This document shows positions 8,070 through 21,456 of a DNA stretch of 44,522 nucleotides, one piece after another. Numbering within the stretch: position 1 is the stretch's first letter; each line of letters opens with the position of its first letter. Origin of the DNA: a virus; the UHGV virus genome UHGV-0355499; one strand, given 5' to 3'. The position numbers were made by a program, and so were the translations under genes. The notes under the pieces are model-generated. The model saw nothing but the letters and a program-made list of their open reading frames with translations. It did no database searches and was not told the origin of the DNA.

Positions 8070-8311
8070 CACCACCAGCGACGCCAATCATCTGGTGGTG
8101 AGCTGTGCAGGGTTGGCGTAACCGGCTAAGTGAACCCGGCGCTTCCACAGAAGCCCCCACACAGCCCACCATAATGCGAATGTGGCCGTGCCTAACACAT
8201 AAAAAAACCGCTAACGCGGCTATGCGTCACTTAGATATCCGGGACGCCAATCCCGGCAACCGATTTTGCGGCTGCGCGGAAACTATAGCCCCGGACTTTT
8301 TCTAAGTCAAT

Positions 8312-13635: not shown

Positions 13636-13753
13636 TTCAGTTCAAATTTCCAGGCCAGCCGCTGCTGGCATGCAACTTTCCCCTAACACAAAAACACCTT
13701 TACACAGTGAATATTTTTTTGCCCCTCACTACAAATTATTTTTTAAAAACACA

Positions 13754-13782
13754 TTGACCATTACAAATACAAATTGTAAAGT
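13754..13782 (+). promoter_or_regulatory. PL-like promoter with operator-type inverted repeat TTACAA-N7-TTGTAA
   Basis: TTGACC (-35-like), 17-nt spacer, TAAAGT (-10-like); inverted repeat shares the TTACAA half-site with the cro/cI intergenic region. Confidence 0.3.
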
Positions 13783-14645
13783 CACTTTCATCAACAACGC
13801 TTACCCAGCGGCAGTTGTTCAGAAACACGTTCTGACAGCCGGAAAGACGGCACCAAATTTTGCGCGTCGGCGCCAACACGGTGACAGAGGGAAAGACTTC
13901 ACCGGCATATGGCACATGTGTCGAAGCGGTCTGGATGGAAGCGGAGCCTTAACGCGTTGTCTCCATAGCAGGTAGCCGGAATGTGCAAGCCACAGCCAGG
14001 TATGAGCGATTGATTCACCATCAAGGCGATACGGTGTGACCACCAGGGAAGAGTCCTGGCTACAACACGAGAGCGCACTTCATCGACTCAACTTTGAGCT
14101 TTGTCGTTAAATTTTGAAATGGCGGAGTGCGCTCCCGGTTGTGGTGAACAGGTGTTTAACGGGAACTCCCTGCCCGTTACCCGGTTCGATTCCGGGCGCC
14201 CATCATCAATTTGCTGTGTTTAGTCTTTGCCCAGTCCGCACGATGGGCCATTTTTTCACACAGCCAGGTTTTATCGCTGTGCCTGAGTCCCCAACAGGAG
14301 AGGCCAAACCCGCAGCGTGACACCAGGGAAAGACCGGAGGAAGTACCACGCCTGACCAGCGTTGACCATGAGCCTGACCAGCTCAAAACAGGAAAGACCA
14401 GCCCGGGCCTGACCAGCCCTGTACGGTCGTAATGGAAACATAACGACGCCGGAAACGTAACCGGCACCCTTTAGATAGCAAAAGACCCGCACAAGGCGGG
14501 CCAGTTACCCCGAACGGCGACCAAACCATTCGGATTTATCACAAGTGACCAAACTTGTGATGAGGAAAGACCAACGACACTGACGCTATGGAAGCTGATC
14601 AATATTCGCTGATCGGCTCTGAGTATACATTACCAAGGAGTCGCT

Positions 14646-14966
14646 ATGGAAGCGCGCACCATCCCAGTAACACTCTTTATTCATTATGCAACTTCAACTT
14701 TCAGCCACGAAAAGCTGCTTGTTGCGACTGTTGATATGTCAAAAAATTTTCCAGACAGGTACATCCTTCTGGAAAGCCGCGAAATTGAAATTACCGTTAA
14801 CCAGCCCGAGCCAATCGACATCATCGGTTTACAGGTCGAGCAACTGCGTGAACAAAAACAGAAAACAGTCGCCGACGCCCAACAGCGTATTGCTGCTATC
14901 GATGACAAAATCCAGCAGTTACTTTGCATCGAATACACGCCAGATACCGATGAGCTCCCCTACTAA
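14646..14966 (+). CDS. hypothetical phage early protein
   Basis: 106-aa ORF with AAGGAG RBS; first ORF of the rightward operon after the long leader. Confidence 0.5.
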   Translation: MEARTIPVTLFIHYATSTFSHEKLLVATVDMSKNFPDRYILLESREIEITVNQPEPIDIIGLQVEQLREQKQKTVADAQQRIAAIDDKIQQLLCIEYTPDTDELPY

Positions 14967-14996
14967 AAACCACTGACCTGTAATGAGGAAAGACCA

Positions 14997-17213
14997 ATGA
15001 CCATTTTTAACGGCTTGTTAGAAGCGAAAAAAGGCGCGCTCAAAAACGGCGCGATCCCGGCGCTGGCCATCGCCATCGCCGCCCCTAACAAAAAAGTTGC
15101 CGAGAACATCATCATCGGCAAATTGTGGGAAGCCTACCCTGACCACGGCGACAACTATTTCAAACCTAAAATCTGGGAAGATGCCCCGGGCCAACCGCGC
15201 CCAGGCGTCGGTGAGTTTGATGAGACGTTTGCCACAGAACACAGTTTTGATGGCGAAAAATGGGTAGTTAACACTCCTGTTGATTCAGATTGCAGTTCAG
15301 CAGATATCTCACAGGTTAGCGACCTGATGAAACTGCCGGCTCGTGAACGATTCGCCGCCGTTCTGCTGTTCAGCCACGACGCCAACGAAGTCGACAGTGA
15401 ATTGCTTGTGCAGACGCGTGAATACCTGGAGATGCTCGATAACAGTGATACTGACAGTGAGGATGAGGTTGACGCGTTTAACCGCATCGTTCTTGATGCC
15501 ATGGTGGCGTGTAAGCCCATCGAGTACATGCATATTGCTGGATTGAATAATCTGGTACATGCAATTTTGGCAAGTTGCGATACCCAGGAACAAAACCCGA
15601 CCAGTTGGACTATCTCCAAATTTATAAAAAAATGGGTAGAGAATCCCGGTAAACGAGATGAAATGCTGCCGGAGGTAAAACCAGAAACAGCATCCGCACG
15701 TCCTTACAAACAGACTCACGCCACTCTGGATCGTGAAATTGCCTGCGCCCTGTTACCTGTTGCCCCGGAAAAAATCACCCCCAGCATCCTGAAAGCGGCA
15801 GACGAAATAATCAGTCAGGACAGGGAAGATTTTAAACGCTGGTCAATGGCCTTGCGCACAACGGATCAGATCCTTGCCTATGACCGCGCATCAGTATTCG
15901 GTGTTATTCAGAGCGCCCCCGCAAAAGACACGTACCACTTCCCACAATCCCTGCGCAGTCACATCGACAACTGGCTGCAAGCTAACGGGCAGCGTGATGC
16001 AAATGCTGTTGAAGAGAAGCCAAAGGAAGCAGCACCCAAGGATGATGTAAAAGTCACCAACCACGGCGGCGGACGATTCTCAATTGATGGGATGATGTCA
16101 GAAACACCCTCAAATCAGGGCGAAAAAAGCGAAGCTGCAAATGCTGGAGAACGTAGTTTGCAGCAGTTGCGTGAGCAGTTTGTCACGCCTCGCCATGTGT
16201 ATGACGTACCTGAAAATAACGCCGTATCACAGAGGGAACCTGCAGCTATTACCCTGGCAGAAGAGACTCCTCCACAAGAACAACTTAGCGAGCAGGTAAA
16301 GGATCTGGTGCAGAACGTTGACGCGCTGGTTGAGCGGATCCATGCCGAAGAGCACAAGCGGCAGAATGCAATCTCAGCTATCGAAACGGAGTTAAAGGAC
16401 TCAGATGACACGGATAACCTGGCATTGTGGAAGAACGTATTCAAAACCGATGAGCGCTTCACCAGTGCTTTCTCTCAGAATGGCGGCGGCACATCCATCA
16501 ACGGCACTTATATAGCGATGAAAGCGACTCGCGAATTTGGGCCATTTGGTATTGGCTGGGGGGTAGAGGTGCTGGAGGAGCGCTTTGATAAAGGCGCACC
16601 AATAGTTCGCAAAAAACAGGTTGGTGAAAAAATAGAATGGGATCTGATTCAAGACGGTGTTGGCGGGTACCTATGTGAAATGCACCACACCATGAAAGTG
16701 AGAGTCTGGTACATATTGAATGGGGTACGCGGTGAGTCCGAGGCTTACGGATGCACACCTTATATCTACGACACTAAATACGGACCAACAAGCGACGGCG
16801 AAGCACCGAAGAAATCCTGGACGGATGCTGTTAAGAAAGCGCTATCCCCTCTCGGATTCAGCGCCGATATTTTCATGGGCCTGTACGACAATCCGGAATA
16901 CCGCCAGAGGAATAAAGCTGAGTTTGATATCAAGAATGCCAGCGAGAATGCGGAAGATGCTACCCGTCTGCGTAAGGAACTGGATGAGAAGCTTATCAAC
17001 GTTGCCAATACGCTGGCCGCCGCGGTAACCGCCAACGAAGTAAACAAGGTATTTGGCCTCATCGCCCGCGAAGTGGATGTACACAGGAAAGCAGCGGAAA
17101 CCAAAGGCGATAAAGAATATTCATCGTATCTGGGATCACGTCTGCGCCGTATCACCGACATTAAAACTGAACGCCTCGCCGCCCTTACCGCTGCACAGGA
17201 GCAAACAGCATGA
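14997..17213 (+). CDS. large early protein with C-terminal Rad52/Erf-like single-strand annealing domain
   Basis: 738-aa ORF; C-terminal region (...YGCTPYIYDTKYGP...KKSWTDAVKKALSPLGFSADIFMG) resembles the Rad52/Sak signature (VTDxLKRAL..FGNALG); N-terminal ~450 aa acidic, unrecognised. Confidence 0.6.
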   Translation: MTIFNGLLEAKKGALKNGAIPALAIAIAAPNKKVAENIIIGKLWEAYPDHGDNYFKPKIWEDAPGQPRPGVGEFDETFATEHSFDGEKWVVNTPVDSDCSSADISQVSDLMKLPARERFAAVLLFSHDANEVDSELLVQTREYLEMLDNSDTDSEDEVDAFNRIVLDAMVACKPIEYMHIAGLNNLVHAILASCDTQEQNPTSWTISKFIKKWVENPGKRDEMLPEVKPETASARPYKQTHATLDREIACALLPVAPEKITPSILKAADEIISQDREDFKRWSMALRTTDQILAYDRASVFGVIQSAPAKDTYHFPQSLRSHIDNWLQANGQRDANAVEEKPKEAAPKDDVKVTNHGGGRFSIDGMMSETPSNQGEKSEAANAGERSLQQLREQFVTPRHVYDVPENNAVSQREPAAITLAEETPPQEQLSEQVKDLVQNVDALVERIHAEEHKRQNAISAIETELKDSDDTDNLALWKNVFKTDERFTSAFSQNGGGTSINGTYIAMKATREFGPFGIGWGVEVLEERFDKGAPIVRKKQVGEKIEWDLIQDGVGGYLCEMHHTMKVRVWYILNGVRGESEAYGCTPYIYDTKYGPTSDGEAPKKSWTDAVKKALSPLGFSADIFMGLYDNPEYRQRNKAEFDIKNASENAEDATRLRKELDEKLINVANTLAAAVTANEVNKVFGLIAREVDVHRKAAETKGDKEYSSYLGSRLRRITDIKTERLAALTAAQEQTA

Positions 17214-17779
17214 GCACTGCTATCGCTATTGCAAAAGAATATGCCAGTCTGATTGACCTGTTAGAAACCGCCGATGAACTGACGCCAGAGATGATCGCCG
17301 ACACGCTTGAAGGCATGGAAGGAGAACTGGGAGACAAACTGGACGCCATGATGGTCATCTGCCGTAATTTACAGGGCAATGCCAATACCTGCGCTGAAGA
17401 AATGTCTCGCCTGGCAACCCGTAAGACGTCCTTTGAAGGCAAGGAAAAAGCAATTCGAAAGCATATGCTCACCTGCCTGCAAGCTGCTGGCCTGGATAAA
17501 CTGAAAACCGCAAAAAACACATTTACTGATGCACAGGGGGCTATCCGGGTAATTATCGATAGCAAAGATAAGATCCCGGATGAGTATGAGGGCGTGTCAC
17601 TTGTTGATGTAGAAACGGTTATTACACCAAACAAGCGAGCCATTAAAGAAGTGATTGAATCTGCGGAGGCGGTTGCCGCCGAAATACTGGCGCGTGGAGA
17701 AACACCACCAGCCGAGTTATTAAACCCGGTACCAGGCGCACATCTGGAACGCGGCGAACGGTCACTGAGGATACGCTAA
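17210..17779 (+). CDS. Gp157-family phage protein
   Basis: 189-aa ORF; pattern DTLEGMEGELGDKLDAMMVICRNLQ...KIPDEY matches siphovirus Gp157 family, commonly adjacent to annealase genes. Confidence 0.6.
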   Translation: MSTAIAIAKEYASLIDLLETADELTPEMIADTLEGMEGELGDKLDAMMVICRNLQGNANTCAEEMSRLATRKTSFEGKEKAIRKHMLTCLQAAGLDKLKTAKNTFTDAQGAIRVIIDSKDKIPDEYEGVSLVDVETVITPNKRAIKEVIESAEAVAAEILARGETPPAELLNPVPGAHLERGERSLRIR

Positions 17780-17961
17780 TGCTTAAACTCACATTAAAGC
17801 GTGGTGACGCGGTTCACCTGGTACTTGCCGATGGTACCAATGGCATTATTGAAGCACGGAGCCGCTGCGAACTTGGGCTACACCTGCCAGAAAACATTAA
17901 GGTCACTCGGGAGAAATCGGCATTCACCCCACAAGAACTGATTACGCCTAATCAGAAATAA
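17779..17961 (+). CDS. CsrA/RsmA-like small RNA-binding protein (putative)
   Basis: 60-aa ORF, start overlaps stop of upstream gene (TAATG); aligns end to end with CsrA (MLxLT.+.G N-terminus, LG..LP, V-x-RE near residue 44). Confidence 0.5.
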   Translation: MLKLTLKRGDAVHLVLADGTNGIIEARSRCELGLHLPENIKVTREKSAFTPQELITPNQK

Positions 17962-19419: not shown

Positions 19420-19481
19420 ATGATGATGCGTCCAGAGAAAAATCATCTTCGGACGCATCTTCGGAAATGAGAAAGAAGATA

Positions 19482-19506
19482 CAAAAAAACCACCCGAAGG
19501 TGGTTT
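19482..19506 (-). terminator. intrinsic terminator positioned as tRNA terminator
   Basis: Hairpin ACCACC-CGAA-GGTGGT followed on the - strand by a U7 run, ~45 nt downstream of the tRNA 3' CCA end. Confidence 0.4.
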
Positions 19507-19549
19507 CACGACACTGCTTATTGCTTTGATTTTATTCTTATCTTTCCCA

Positions 19550-19604
19550 TGGTACCCGGAGCGGGACTTGAACCCGCACAGCGCGAACGCCGAGGGATTT
19601 TAAA
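19550..19604 (-). other. tRNA-Leu(UAA)-like 3' fragment (~55 nt, anticodon loop to CCA): phage attachment core at the junction of the two prophages
   Basis: Minus-strand sequence TTTAAAATCCCTCGGCGTTCGCGCTGTGCGGGTTCAAGTCCCGCTCCGGGTACCA matches the 3' part of a class II tRNA-Leu; the 5' half (D-arm, acceptor 5' strand) is absent. Confidence 0.75.
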
Positions 19605-19825
19605 TTGGTCGCTTTGTGCAATAAATTCAAATAATTATGGCAAATTATCCGGACATAATGGTGTGTATGAATATCAAATAATCATATAGTTACGACGCGT
19701 CTTACTCATCGTCTTCTGAAGGTTTTTGGCAAAAATGGTGATGTTCTGCGCCTTTATGTGACCAAACTGTCAGGAGCAAAGCGAGGTAAAGGGGTATGAG
19801 AAAAACTCACATACCCCAACACAAA

Positions 19826-20245
19826 TTAAAACGCGGTTGGGTGAATTCCATATTCACCGTTTGATCCATACCCTATGCGATACATCAAAGTACGATCTGT
19901 TGTCACCTTGCCCGCTTGTTCGCTCATGCCACCACCACATACTCCTTTTGGCCACGCGCTGAAGACATGATCACCAATCGTTGGGTATACAACGACTTTC
20001 TGAGCTGTACCTAAATCTGCCACCTCTTTACCATCAACATAAACACGGGAAAAACACGCGCTTCCAAAGAAACCCGAGTCACGCTTGATGATCACCTCTC
20101 CCGTACCGTCTCGTTTTTCGAGTAACGCGGTACTGATAATTTGTTTTTCAGGAACAGGAGTGGCTTGTTCATTTGAGACAGGTTTTGTAGCACAACCGAC
20201 AAGAGCAAGCATAATCCCACAGGCAAGACCATTTTTAACGACCAT
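19826..20245 (-). CDS. hypothetical lipoprotein (cargo gene at prophage end)
   Basis: 139-aa ORF with signal peptide and lipobox (LALVGC); between tail gene D and the att core. Confidence 0.5.
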   Translation of the reverse strand: MVVKNGLACGIMLALVGCATKPVSNEQATPVPEKQIISTALLEKRDGTGEVIIKRDSGFFGSACFSRVYVDGKEVADLGTAQKVVVYPTIGDHVFSAWPKGVCGGGMSEQAGKVTTDRTLMYRIGYGSNGEYGIHPTAF

Positions 20246-20682
20246 GTTTGAAAACTCCCAATATTAAAAATATGTCAGCATCTAACGATAACAACGTTCA
20301 GCACCAGAGACTCTTCGTTCTCCGGCTTACGCCTAAAAATATCGCAGGTGCCGTTTGCAGTCGACATCTGTTAATACTAAATTCATACCGCCACCGGCTC
20401 GCCGAGCCCATTTACTCCAGAGACAGCCGAACCGAAAAACCGTTTTCAGCGAGCGTCAGACTCAGTGTGTTGATAGTCCAGTCCCGGTCCTCCTCGGTCC
20501 CGAAACCTTGAGTTGTGACTTTGCATTCTGCTGTCAGCGACACTAAATCGAGCGTCGCTGGCGTCGTGTACGTCATAGAGAACTCTTTTTTAGCTGCACC
20601 GCCCTTGAGCCCTGGTGCAGCTTCTTTCGCTGCGTCGAGCGACGGCTCAACTGCCGGCCATTCAATGACAGGATCGCCGCCA

Positions 20683-21456
20683 CTACCTTGTCCGCAATTC
20701 TTTGATCTGCCCAGTTGCTGTGTCGTGATATTTAATCAGATACGTCGGTTCCGGATTTTCGCCACCGCTACCACTATCGCCACTTTGTCCATTTCTCGAA
20801 TAGCCCCAGCTGGAGTTATCACGACGAGTTAGCGTGTAGTGCTGGAGCGGAGCACCGCTAACAGATTCGCCCGCGCCGCGCGGCAGGAATATCCAGTACC
20901 CGCCCGCGGGTTTACTCACCGCATCGAATCTCGTTGCGAGCCGCGACATCAGGTGCATATCTGACTCGCCGACCTGATCGAGTTGCGTGATAACATTGTC
21001 TGCAAACCGCTTTGATACGCGTGGTTTTAGCCCATTATCGCTCGCTATTGTCGCAACGATATCGCTGACAGTGACGTCGCTCCAGGAACGAGTCTTTTTG
21101 CTCTGAACTGTCGGAGATCCTTTTGCTGCGTTCATCGGAGCCGCTTTTGCTGTGAAATCAACTACCCGGGGTTCACCGCCACTGCTAGCACCGTCAACGA
21201 TGTATATCCCTTTATCAATTATCTGATTACCGAAACCGAGCCCAATACTGATTTTTACTCCGCGGGCCGGAATTTTCAGAGTTTCAGAAACTATTGCTAC
21301 GCGGAGTTCGTCTGTCTGTTTACTGGAGCCGCCGTAATCTGTCAGCGTGATATTGATCAAACCTTTTCTTATTTTATCCGTGATGTTTTTATTATCAGCA
21401 GATATATAAAAATTAGGTTTCCACGCCTCCACGCCAGTATTTACGTAATCACTCAT
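20683..21456 (-). CDS. P2 gpD-like tail protein (late control D family), possibly C-terminally truncated
   Basis: N-terminal similarity to P2 gpD (LINITLTDYGG...DELRVAIV); 257 aa versus ~390 aa recalled for P2 gpD; ~430 nt without ORF follows. Confidence 0.65.
   Translation of the reverse strand: MSDYVNTGVEAWKPNFYISADNKNITDKIRKGLINITLTDYGGSSKQTDELRVAIVSETLKIPARGVKISIGLGFGNQIIDKGIYIVDGASSGGEPRVVDFTAKAAPMNAAKGSPTVQSKKTRSWSDVTVSDIVATIASDNGLKPRVSKRFADNVITQLDQVGESDMHLMSRLATRFDAVSKPAGGYWIFLPRGAGESVSGAPLQHYTLTRRDNSSWGYSRNGQSGDSGSGGENPEPTYLIKYHDTATGQIKELRTR

Follow-up and report, generated by a model that had tools for sequence, protein, structure and literature searches.

A RecE-type N-terminal platform joined to a probable Rad52-type annealase domain in an Escherichia coli prophage

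Genes and features at the locus

We analysed the virus genome UHGV-0355499, a single stretch of 44,522 nucleotides (nt; hereafter the window), with emphasis on one gene for a protein of 738 amino acids (aa) that most likely joins a Rad52-type single-strand annealing domain to an N-terminal region shared with RecE. Judged by its sequence, the window is E. coli prophage or phage DNA. The locus comprises minus-strand cro/YdaS and YdaT genes, a cI-like helix-turn-helix gene, about 1 kb free of open reading frames (ORFs), an ORF of 106 aa and the gene for the 738-aa protein, which is followed by a Gp157 gene, a 60-aa ORF, a DUF4224 excisionase gene and the integrase gene. By its gene content, this operon context is typical of a lambdoid early-left arm. 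Coordinates are collected in Table 1.

Table 1. Features of the 738-aa gene and its neighbours in the window.
Feature	Position	Strand	Description
Conserved upstream ORF	14646..14966	+	106 aa; phrog_2479 (PHROG E 6e-53), labelled as of unknown function
Shine-Dalgarno GAGGA	14985..14989	+	7 nt before the ATG at 14997; read from the sequence
Whole gene	14997..17213	+	738 aa: RecE-type platform, linker, predicted Rad52-fold annealase domain, helical tail
Platform sub-domain 1	14997..15269	+	aa 1-91; small alpha/beta unit common to DEDDh-type 'exonuclease' proteins (HannyBb/PPompW)
Platform sub-domain 2	15324..15665	+	aa 110-223; acidic helical bundle; from aa ~142 common to Gifsy/SPN3UB RecE
Platform sub-domain 3	15693..16004	+	aa 233-336; helical; common to all RecE/exonuclease VIII (K-12 RecE aa ~262-370)
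Acidic linker	16017..16415	+	aa 341-473; poorly conserved; mosaic breakpoint region
Predicted Rad52-fold annealase core	16416..16892	+	aa 474-632; start point of stand-alone homologues
Signature helix and motif KKSWTDAVKKALSPLGFSADIFMG	16809..16880	+	aa 605-628; invariant or near-invariant alignment columns; hhalign register
C-terminal three-helix tail	16893..17210	+	aa 633-738; AF2 helices 170-274 of the C-domain model; alignment
Sipho_Gp157 gene	17210..17779	+	189 aa; PF05565, E 9e-29, 101 bits (cut-off 28.6)
60-aa ORF	17779..17961	+	phrog_2482 (PHROG E 2e-36); completes the conserved operon before xis/int

An earlier reading of this DNA made from its letters (the sequence-only reading) had described a single uninterrupted 738-codon frame, and an ORF with an ATG start lies exactly there. 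The chance of such an open frame is about 4e-16 ((61/64)^738) in DNA of about 50% G+C. More than 1000 full-length homologues of 710-844 aa were found in databases, in E. coli, Salmonella, Klebsiella and other Enterobacterales. Codon-level comparison with E. coli L26 gave ratios of non-synonymous to synonymous substitution rates (dN/dS) of 0.17 both in aa 1-340 and in the linker, and of 0.05 in the C-terminal domain; against STEC434 the value for aa 1-340 was again 0.17. None of the three homologues compared (L26, STEC434 and BUCT708) contained in-frame stops or frameshifts. The whole 738-codon frame is a gene under purifying selection along its full length. A sequencing or frameshift artefact joining two genes was ruled out by conservation in 439 genomes and in the Pectobacterium phage ZF40. 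Using Rfam, we detected no RNA gene within or beside the gene across 14646-17961, and a defence system was ruled out, as PADLOC gave no match.

The C-terminal part is most likely a Rad52-type annealase domain

The region from aa ~474 to 738 is autonomous. Stand-alone proteins of 240-280 aa in Pseudomonas, Vibrio, Yersinia and Pelagibacter phages start exactly at the motif 'NL.IW..V.KTD' (aa 474), and a near-invariant block, DGEAPKKS.TDA.KKALS.LGFSAD.F.G, is common to the stand-alone and long forms. A profile of the C-domain alignment matched 4309 cluster representatives in 1.84 billion proteins. Among the 144 representatives listed, 117 are shorter than 400 aa, mostly 240-280 aa, in line with the earlier statement that annealases of this class usually measure 200-250 aa; the 27 longer ones carry the domain at their C-terminus. 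The domain family itself is not new, since a short form is already annotated as RAD52-like in phage PseuP_222.

The sequence-only reading had also pointed to a Rad52/Sak-like signature near the C-terminus. This signature is present as the motif KKSWTDAVKKALSPLGFSADIFMG at aa 605-628, and the annealase reading is supported by the fold prediction: the predicted structure of the C-domain shows the beta-hairpin and sheet packed on a long helix that define the Rad52-type core. Using hhalign and a RAD52 sequence identical to 1KN0, we aligned the annealase family with RAD52 residues 47-161 (E 0.001), with the GGG loop, the FG..GW motif and the signature helix in register. In this alignment K613 (near-invariant) and K614 (invariant) correspond to human RAD52 K152 and R153, which belong to the inner binding site for single-stranded DNA (ssDNA), and the counterpart of RAD52 R156 is an invariant Ser in the family. 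The three-helix tail that follows the core is found in stand-alone forms too and may be a partner-binding or oligomerisation element.

Two results speak against this assignment. PF04098 (Rad52_Rad22) matched the C-domain with 13.6 bits (E 0.067), below its gathering score of 20.3, and a HMMER profile of the family searched against the PDB sequences did not retrieve RAD52 but coiled-coil noise from the helical tail. The latter shows that the relationship to RAD52 is remote and rests chiefly on the predicted fold. A phmmer search of the PDB sequences with the 738-aa protein returned only noise. In the Pfam searches the 738-aa protein itself stays sub-threshold, but 18 of 25 family members match Rad52_Rad22, weakly or below threshold (best E 8.3e-5), and no competing Pfam family recurs in more than two of the 25. 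On the predicted fold and these alignments, aa ~474-738 most likely form a Rad52-superfamily single-strand annealing domain.

The N-terminal part is a RecE-type platform

As the sequence-only reading had stated, the N-terminal extension is acidic: the first 473 aa have a net charge of -32 and an isoelectric point (pI) of 4.8; the last 265 aa are neutral (pI 7.0). It had further called the extension partly low-complexity and of unknown function. However, aa 1-340 are folded and conserved, and only aa ~341-473 look linker-like. The unknown function still applies to the biochemistry, but the extension is not an orphan, as aa 1-340 constitute a module shared with RecE-family proteins, here called the platform. 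All 340 platform residues are conserved in ZF40, at about 29% identity, and also in Salmonella, Klebsiella and Pectobacterium lineages.

NCBIfam PRK09709 (exonuclease VIII) matches aa 233-336 with an E-value of 1.9e-12 (profile positions 262-370 of 877), and the RecE-like PHROGs 607 and 2082 match the same stretch. The score against the full-length equivalog NF007259 was 46 bits with a cut-off of 1269, again over aa 233-336 only, which indicates a shared segment and not membership. Direct comparison with K-12 RecE was weak, both by BLASTP (aa 243-308 against 263-332, E 0.007) and when the N-terminal family was aligned with the single K-12 sequence by hhalign (probability 3.5%). The link of the platform to RecE is therefore drawn from the profiles, from intermediates (SPN3UB gp44 and HannyBb-type proteins) and from the 775-aa homologue P0288.

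Residues 166-375 of SPN3UB gp44, a protein with PF06630 and a PD-(D/E)XK domain whose gene adjoins a RecT gene, align with platform aa 142-324 (BLASTP E 6e-15). Over the same residues the phage census aligned RecE of Gifsy-1/2 and FSL SP-016. The platform as a whole (aa 3-339) aligns by hhalign with the N-terminus of an 823-aa 'exonuclease' of the phages HannyBb, PPompW, Tritos, Evi and mEp460 (probability 99.5%, E 1.7e-22). The C-terminus of this HannyBb-type protein is a DEDDh 3'-5' exonuclease (PF16473, E 2e-67), and its middle region is 39% identical to RecE 278-592. P0288 contains aa 1-518 of K-12 RecE at 49% identity (E 6e-156), including PF06630, and a Rad52-like domain takes the place of the nuclease after this RecE N-terminus; the same annealase domain accompanies PF06630 in a further homologue, P0290. 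Most long members of the annealase family have the same platform as the 738-aa protein, and some lack it.

PF06630, the N-terminal Exonuc_VIII domain, has no match in the 738-aa protein. Precomputed matches to PF27430 lie within the first ~230 aa of all close homologues, and the platform version of the 738-aa protein probably corresponds to this Pfam family, as judged from where the matches fall. We found no structural match of the platform, nuclease-like folds included. When the N-terminal 340 aa served as query in a word-indexed homologue search, the matches were mainly fragments and included neither the RecE nor the DEDDh relatives; these were found by tblastn on phage genomes and by exhaustive profile search. 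By these sequence relationships, the platform is a portable mosaic module that occurs on three unrelated effectors, namely a 5'-3' exonuclease, a 3'-5' exonuclease and an annealase.

Some Salmonella variants of 804-844 aa (P0006, P0012, P0013 and P0016) carry an insert of ~95 aa at alignment columns ~250-355. The insert is 40% identical to platform aa 113-154 (E 3e-4) and represents an internal duplication of sub-domain 2; a further variant, P0014, lacks the first copy of the duplicated sub-domain.

A variable linker separates the two parts

The linker contains one short conserved motif, G(R/M)FS(I/V)DG(L/M)M.E(T/S).SN.GEK, and ends in a helix directly before the annealase domain. No other part of the protein is less conserved: identity to BUCT708 is 29% in the linker, compared with 55-69% in the flanking domains. 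In STEC434 the identity switches across the linker from 96.5% (aa 1-340) to 55.5% in the annealase domain; BUCT708 shows the opposite trend between platform and annealase domain. In a syntenic prophage (L016, 3684-5846), a frame of ~720 codons is interrupted by one in-frame TAG at codon 430, which falls into the helix just ahead of the annealase domain, in the equivalent of the linker region. Gene prediction there yields a platform protein of 429 aa and an annealase of 281 aa. We ruled out a natural split into two genes in L016, as the frame is broken by a single in-frame TAG.

Gp157 accompanies the annealase domain

The downstream Gp157-family gene named in the sequence-only reading was confirmed by its PF05565 match (Table 1). 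Its ATG overlaps the stop codon of the annealase gene (ATGA). The order annealase then Gp157 recurs in STEC434, BUCT708, ZF40, L016/L017, the P0288 locus (L018/L019), PseuP_222, Vibrio phage D56 and Yersinia prophages, and in the compared loci the Gp157 start usually overlaps the annealase stop. Vibrio phage VvAW1 is the one exception to this pairing that we saw. RecE and DEDDh platform proteins have no Gp157 neighbour. Since Gp157 pairs with short and long annealases alike, it belongs with the annealase domain and not with the platform.

The Gp157 gene falls into PHROG 253, which is labelled 'Mu Gam-like end protection', a name that some annotators use as well. The relationship to Mu Gam was not confirmed, as Phage_Mu_Gam gave a weak match (E 0.036) in one of five Gp157 orthologues. 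A prophage beside icd (L018, 149-3260) encodes, in this order, a lambda Gam homologue, the 775-aa P0288 chimera, Gp157, Exc and Int. The coexistence of Gam and Gp157 speaks against Gp157 being simply a redundant inhibitor of RecBCD. Genes for gam-like, DUF1351, DUF2483 and Gp157 proteins occupy equivalent positions beside erf and sak4, implying analogous functions (Steczkiewicz et al., 2021; PMC8093625). We treat Gp157 as a putative accessory of the annealase.

In the exceptional phage VvAW1 (L011, 3489-6163) the short annealase precedes a hypothetical protein of 383 aa and a DEDD exonuclease, so that annealase, 3'-5' exonuclease and accessory protein are separate genes.

The remaining small ORFs of the operon are also conserved in position. 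Homologues of the 106-aa ORF occur at the same place in L016 (51% identity), BUCT708 (41%) and ZF40 (gp08, 32%), and STEC434 has an ORF of the same size there; such an ORF precedes the large gene in all four other long-form loci compared. ORFs similar in size to the 60-aa ORF lie at its position in BUCT708, STEC434 and L016. The 60-aa ORF gave a weak match to Pfam CsrA (E 0.097) and may encode a phage CsrA-like RNA-binding regulator. The equivalent module of VvAW1 includes a gene annotated as CsrA-like (L011, 6138-6350).

Alternative readings of the 738-aa protein

Several resources call the protein an exonuclease. It is a cluster member of PHROG 2489 ('exonuclease'), which it matches over its full length (E = 0, aa 1-737 against profile positions 1-728); PHROG 7838, which matches the Rad52-fold domain itself, bears the same label; and some records of the Prokaryotic Genome Annotation Pipeline (PGAP), as well as the ZF40 and Vibrio phage annotations, say the same. 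Genome annotations of the gene read 'hypothetical protein', 'exonuclease family protein' or 'phage-associated endonuclease'. The homology to the exonuclease VIII profiles is real but partial, and with respect to RecE and the DEDDh proteins it is confined to their non-catalytic N-terminal regions. No PD-(D/E)XK (PF12684), DEDD (PF16473/PF00929) or other nuclease family matched anywhere in the protein at E-values of up to 10, and the C-terminal PF12684/DUF3799 domain that the same type of scan detects in K-12 RecE and SPN3UB gp44 is absent. A plain Pfam scan of the whole protein gave no match, and the NCBIfam scan only the partial exonuclease VIII segment. Moreover, the C-domain to which PHROG 7838 lends its label has a predicted Rad52 fold, and the platform has no nuclease-like structural match. 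We therefore regard an exonuclease as extremely improbable; the labels are best explained, on this domain evidence, as annotation transfer from RecE through the shared N-terminus.

It has also to be considered that only the C-terminal annealase is functional, made from an internal start or by processing, with the first 470 codons being a decaying remnant or a translated leader. Most family members are short stand-alone proteins, which evidently suffice, the in-frame stop of L016 lies exactly at the domain boundary, and GTG codon 438, which is in frame, is the sole internal start with an adjacent purine-rich box (AAGGA, a few nt upstream) near that boundary. Yet GTG438 is not kept in the aligned homologues and the first ATG has a good Shine-Dalgarno sequence; the N-terminal dN/dS of 0.17 in two comparisons, the lack of stops and frameshifts, the retention of the platform in ZF40 and the enterobacterial lineages, and its maintenance on two other effector types all disagree with decay. 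Nothing in the sequence points to an internal isoform, and we consider this explanation very unlikely. Somewhat less remote, though still unlikely, is a non-annealing role, in which the Rad52 fold has been recruited as a replication-initiation scaffold or as a trigger or decoy in phage-host conflict and the acidic platform acts as a DNA mimic or anti-nuclease. DNA-mimic inhibitors such as Ocr, ArdA and lambda Gam are strongly acidic, as is the platform; the module lacks a nuclease; and a natural spacer from an array of clustered regularly interspaced short palindromic repeats (CRISPR) targets the gene, so hosts do meet this phage. What speaks for annealing instead is the canonical recombination-module position between immunity region and xis/int together with Gp157, the conservation of the DNA-binding Lys-Lys pair and other Rad52 core motifs, and the negative PADLOC result. 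The platform, for its part, is predicted to fold as three sub-domains and not as an elongated bundle of acidic helices, and it also occurs together with bona fide recombination nucleases.

Proposed function

In our view the C-domain is likely to function as an annealase in concert with Gp157. The 738-aa protein would then be a single-chain recombination protein of the early-left operon of a temperate phage. Its Rad52 core would oligomerise like RAD52, Mgm101 and Sak, bind ssDNA in a basic groove that includes K613/K614 and anneal complementary strands, an activity that would promote recombination of phage DNA independently of RecA, while Gp157 would bind or protect DNA ends or act as a mediator for the annealase. 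No nuclease is encoded in the module, so any resection would depend on enzymes of the host, or else the annealase would act on ssDNA exposed at forks. The platform would be effector-independent, and its probable role is to tether or deliver the effector to one shared partner or substrate, at DNA ends or at replication forks. A 2012 report offers a parallel for such a role, in that full-length RecE, not the isolated nuclease domain, boosts linear-linear recombination.

A broader proposal is that the RecE N-terminal region is a portable, effector-independent platform and that the 738-aa protein and Gp157 make up a complete nuclease-free system, which would supply the 'missing' annealase of ZF40-type modules. 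We put this forward tentatively and think it could well be wrong. If it is true, the platform partner, such as a component of the host replisome, a single-stranded-DNA-binding protein (SSB) or paired DNA ends, could be found by comparing the three fusions that occur in nature, and fusing the platform to an annealase could improve recombineering with linear DNA. Because the RecE N-terminal region occurs on three unrelated effectors, its function is directly testable and cannot depend on nuclease activity. This is of relevance to recombineering and direct cloning, in which full-length RecE is used precisely for its N-terminal region.

Relation to known systems

None of the characterised Rad52-superfamily annealases (Sak of the lactococcal phage ul36 and the staphylococcal phage 80alpha, the N-terminal domain of eukaryotic RAD52 and yeast Mgm101) has a RecE-type platform and linker of ~470 aa. 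The 738-aa protein further differs from them in that its similarity stays below the Pfam threshold, in its long three-helix C-terminal tail and in having Gp157, not SSB, as its regular partner. With RecE (Rac prophage, Gifsy-1/2 and SPN3UB gp44) it has in common aa 233-336 for all RecE proteins and aa 142-336 for the Gifsy/SPN3UB type, as well as genomic position, size class and acidic character; it differs in lacking both the PD-(D/E)XK nuclease domain and PF06630. There is no recT beside the 738-aa gene, because the annealing function would be built into the same polypeptide. The DEDDh 'exonuclease' of HannyBb, PPompW, Tritos, mEp460 and CP-933P resembles the 738-aa protein over the whole platform (aa 3-339) and in its site just upstream of xis/int, but has a 3'-5' exonuclease C-terminus after a RecE-like middle region and no Gp157 neighbour.

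In a recent survey, the HannyBb-group proteins are DnaQ-like nucleases of Rec modules (Genome Res 2025, PMC12315714). The survey describes RecE-2 proteins as distant RecE relatives without a nuclease domain by AlphaFold 3 and with no role assigned, and reports no annealase domain for them (PMC12315714). The ZF40 module seems to be listed there as anti-RecBCD only, without SSB, nuclease or strand-annealing protein, in a table interpreted with the help of its lambda and P22 rows (PMC12315714). The RecE-2 description and the ZF40 module type fit our protein, and ZF40 gp07 and the annealase family may be what the survey calls RecE-2. Under this putative RecE-2 name, the survey (PMC12315714) is the one place in the literature where we found the long form. 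A search of the literature with incomplete coverage yielded no description of a fusion of RecE platform and Rad52 annealase; a search for PF27430 returned nothing, and a 2026 Nucleic Acids Research paper on RecE in mammalian cells contains nothing on platform function.

What is new is thus a probable Rad52-type annealase that carries a RecE-type platform, and its added value lies in a natural experiment on the function of the RecE N-terminus. For annotation, a family of more than 1000 entries labelled 'hypothetical' or 'exonuclease', common in Salmonella too, can be corrected to most likely prophage annealase. This assignment offers a function for a RecE-2-like class and would turn seemingly annealase-less modules such as that of ZF40 into ordinary annealase-plus-accessory modules. 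Rad52-type annealases drive relaxed recombination and mosaicism in temperate phages, and a very common one matters for prophage evolution in pathogenic E. coli and Salmonella.

Distribution and other features of the prophage

The gene is present in 463 of 5426 complete E. coli genomes (~8.5%), always on the chromosome, and is 100% identical in many of them, including O25b:H4-ST131. The orthologue in ZF40, a phage recorded as derived from an induced lysogen, is the 721-aa gp07, which is 36% identical over its full length (E 3e-128); Gp157, xis and int come after it. An orthologue of 710 aa with this gene order also occurs in the Stenotrophomonas phages BUCT708 and BUCT709. At least six complete E. 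coli genomes have the 738-aa gene split by an insertion of ISEc52 (IS3 family) (e.g., NZ_CP107114.1, 314737-318206).

E. coli NCTC9112 has, in its type I-E CRISPR array beside cas1e/cas2e, a 32-nt spacer (L007, 1501-1534) that is 100% identical to 15485-15516 of the window, where the gene encodes the platform. On the spacer-sense strand the matching sequence is flanked by the trinucleotide ATG, an interference-proficient protospacer adjacent motif for E. coli type I-E. This match indicates that E. coli immunity has recorded this phage family at this gene.

The cI-like repressor gene is separated from the 106-aa ORF by ~1 kb (13636-14645) in which no ORF is convincing and for which related prophages carry no annotation. 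This stretch is nevertheless similar, independently of reading frame, to STEC434 (97% identity) and to BUCT708 (71% over 868 nt). G+C-rich hairpins lie at 14394-14502, and Rfam gave a single sub-threshold RprA-like match at 14148-14258. From the arrangement in lambda one would expect pL/oL, nutL and an N-like gene here; none of these was identified in 13636-14645. Elsewhere in the same prophage, 8091-8288 on the minus strand has gathering-level Rfam matches to isrK (an Hfq-binding small RNA), to C4 antisense RNA and to its a1/b1 target, and is by these matches a P1/P7-type antisense immunity element.

Across the whole window we found no tRNA gene; in STEC434 the same integrase adjoins a tRNA-Ser gene. 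The window may represent a phage-form (attP) arrangement or tandem elements. In the region 19420-21456 the integrase is followed by two minus-strand features, a small ORF resembling a lipoprotein gene (19826-20245) and a tail gene like P2 gpD (20683-21456).

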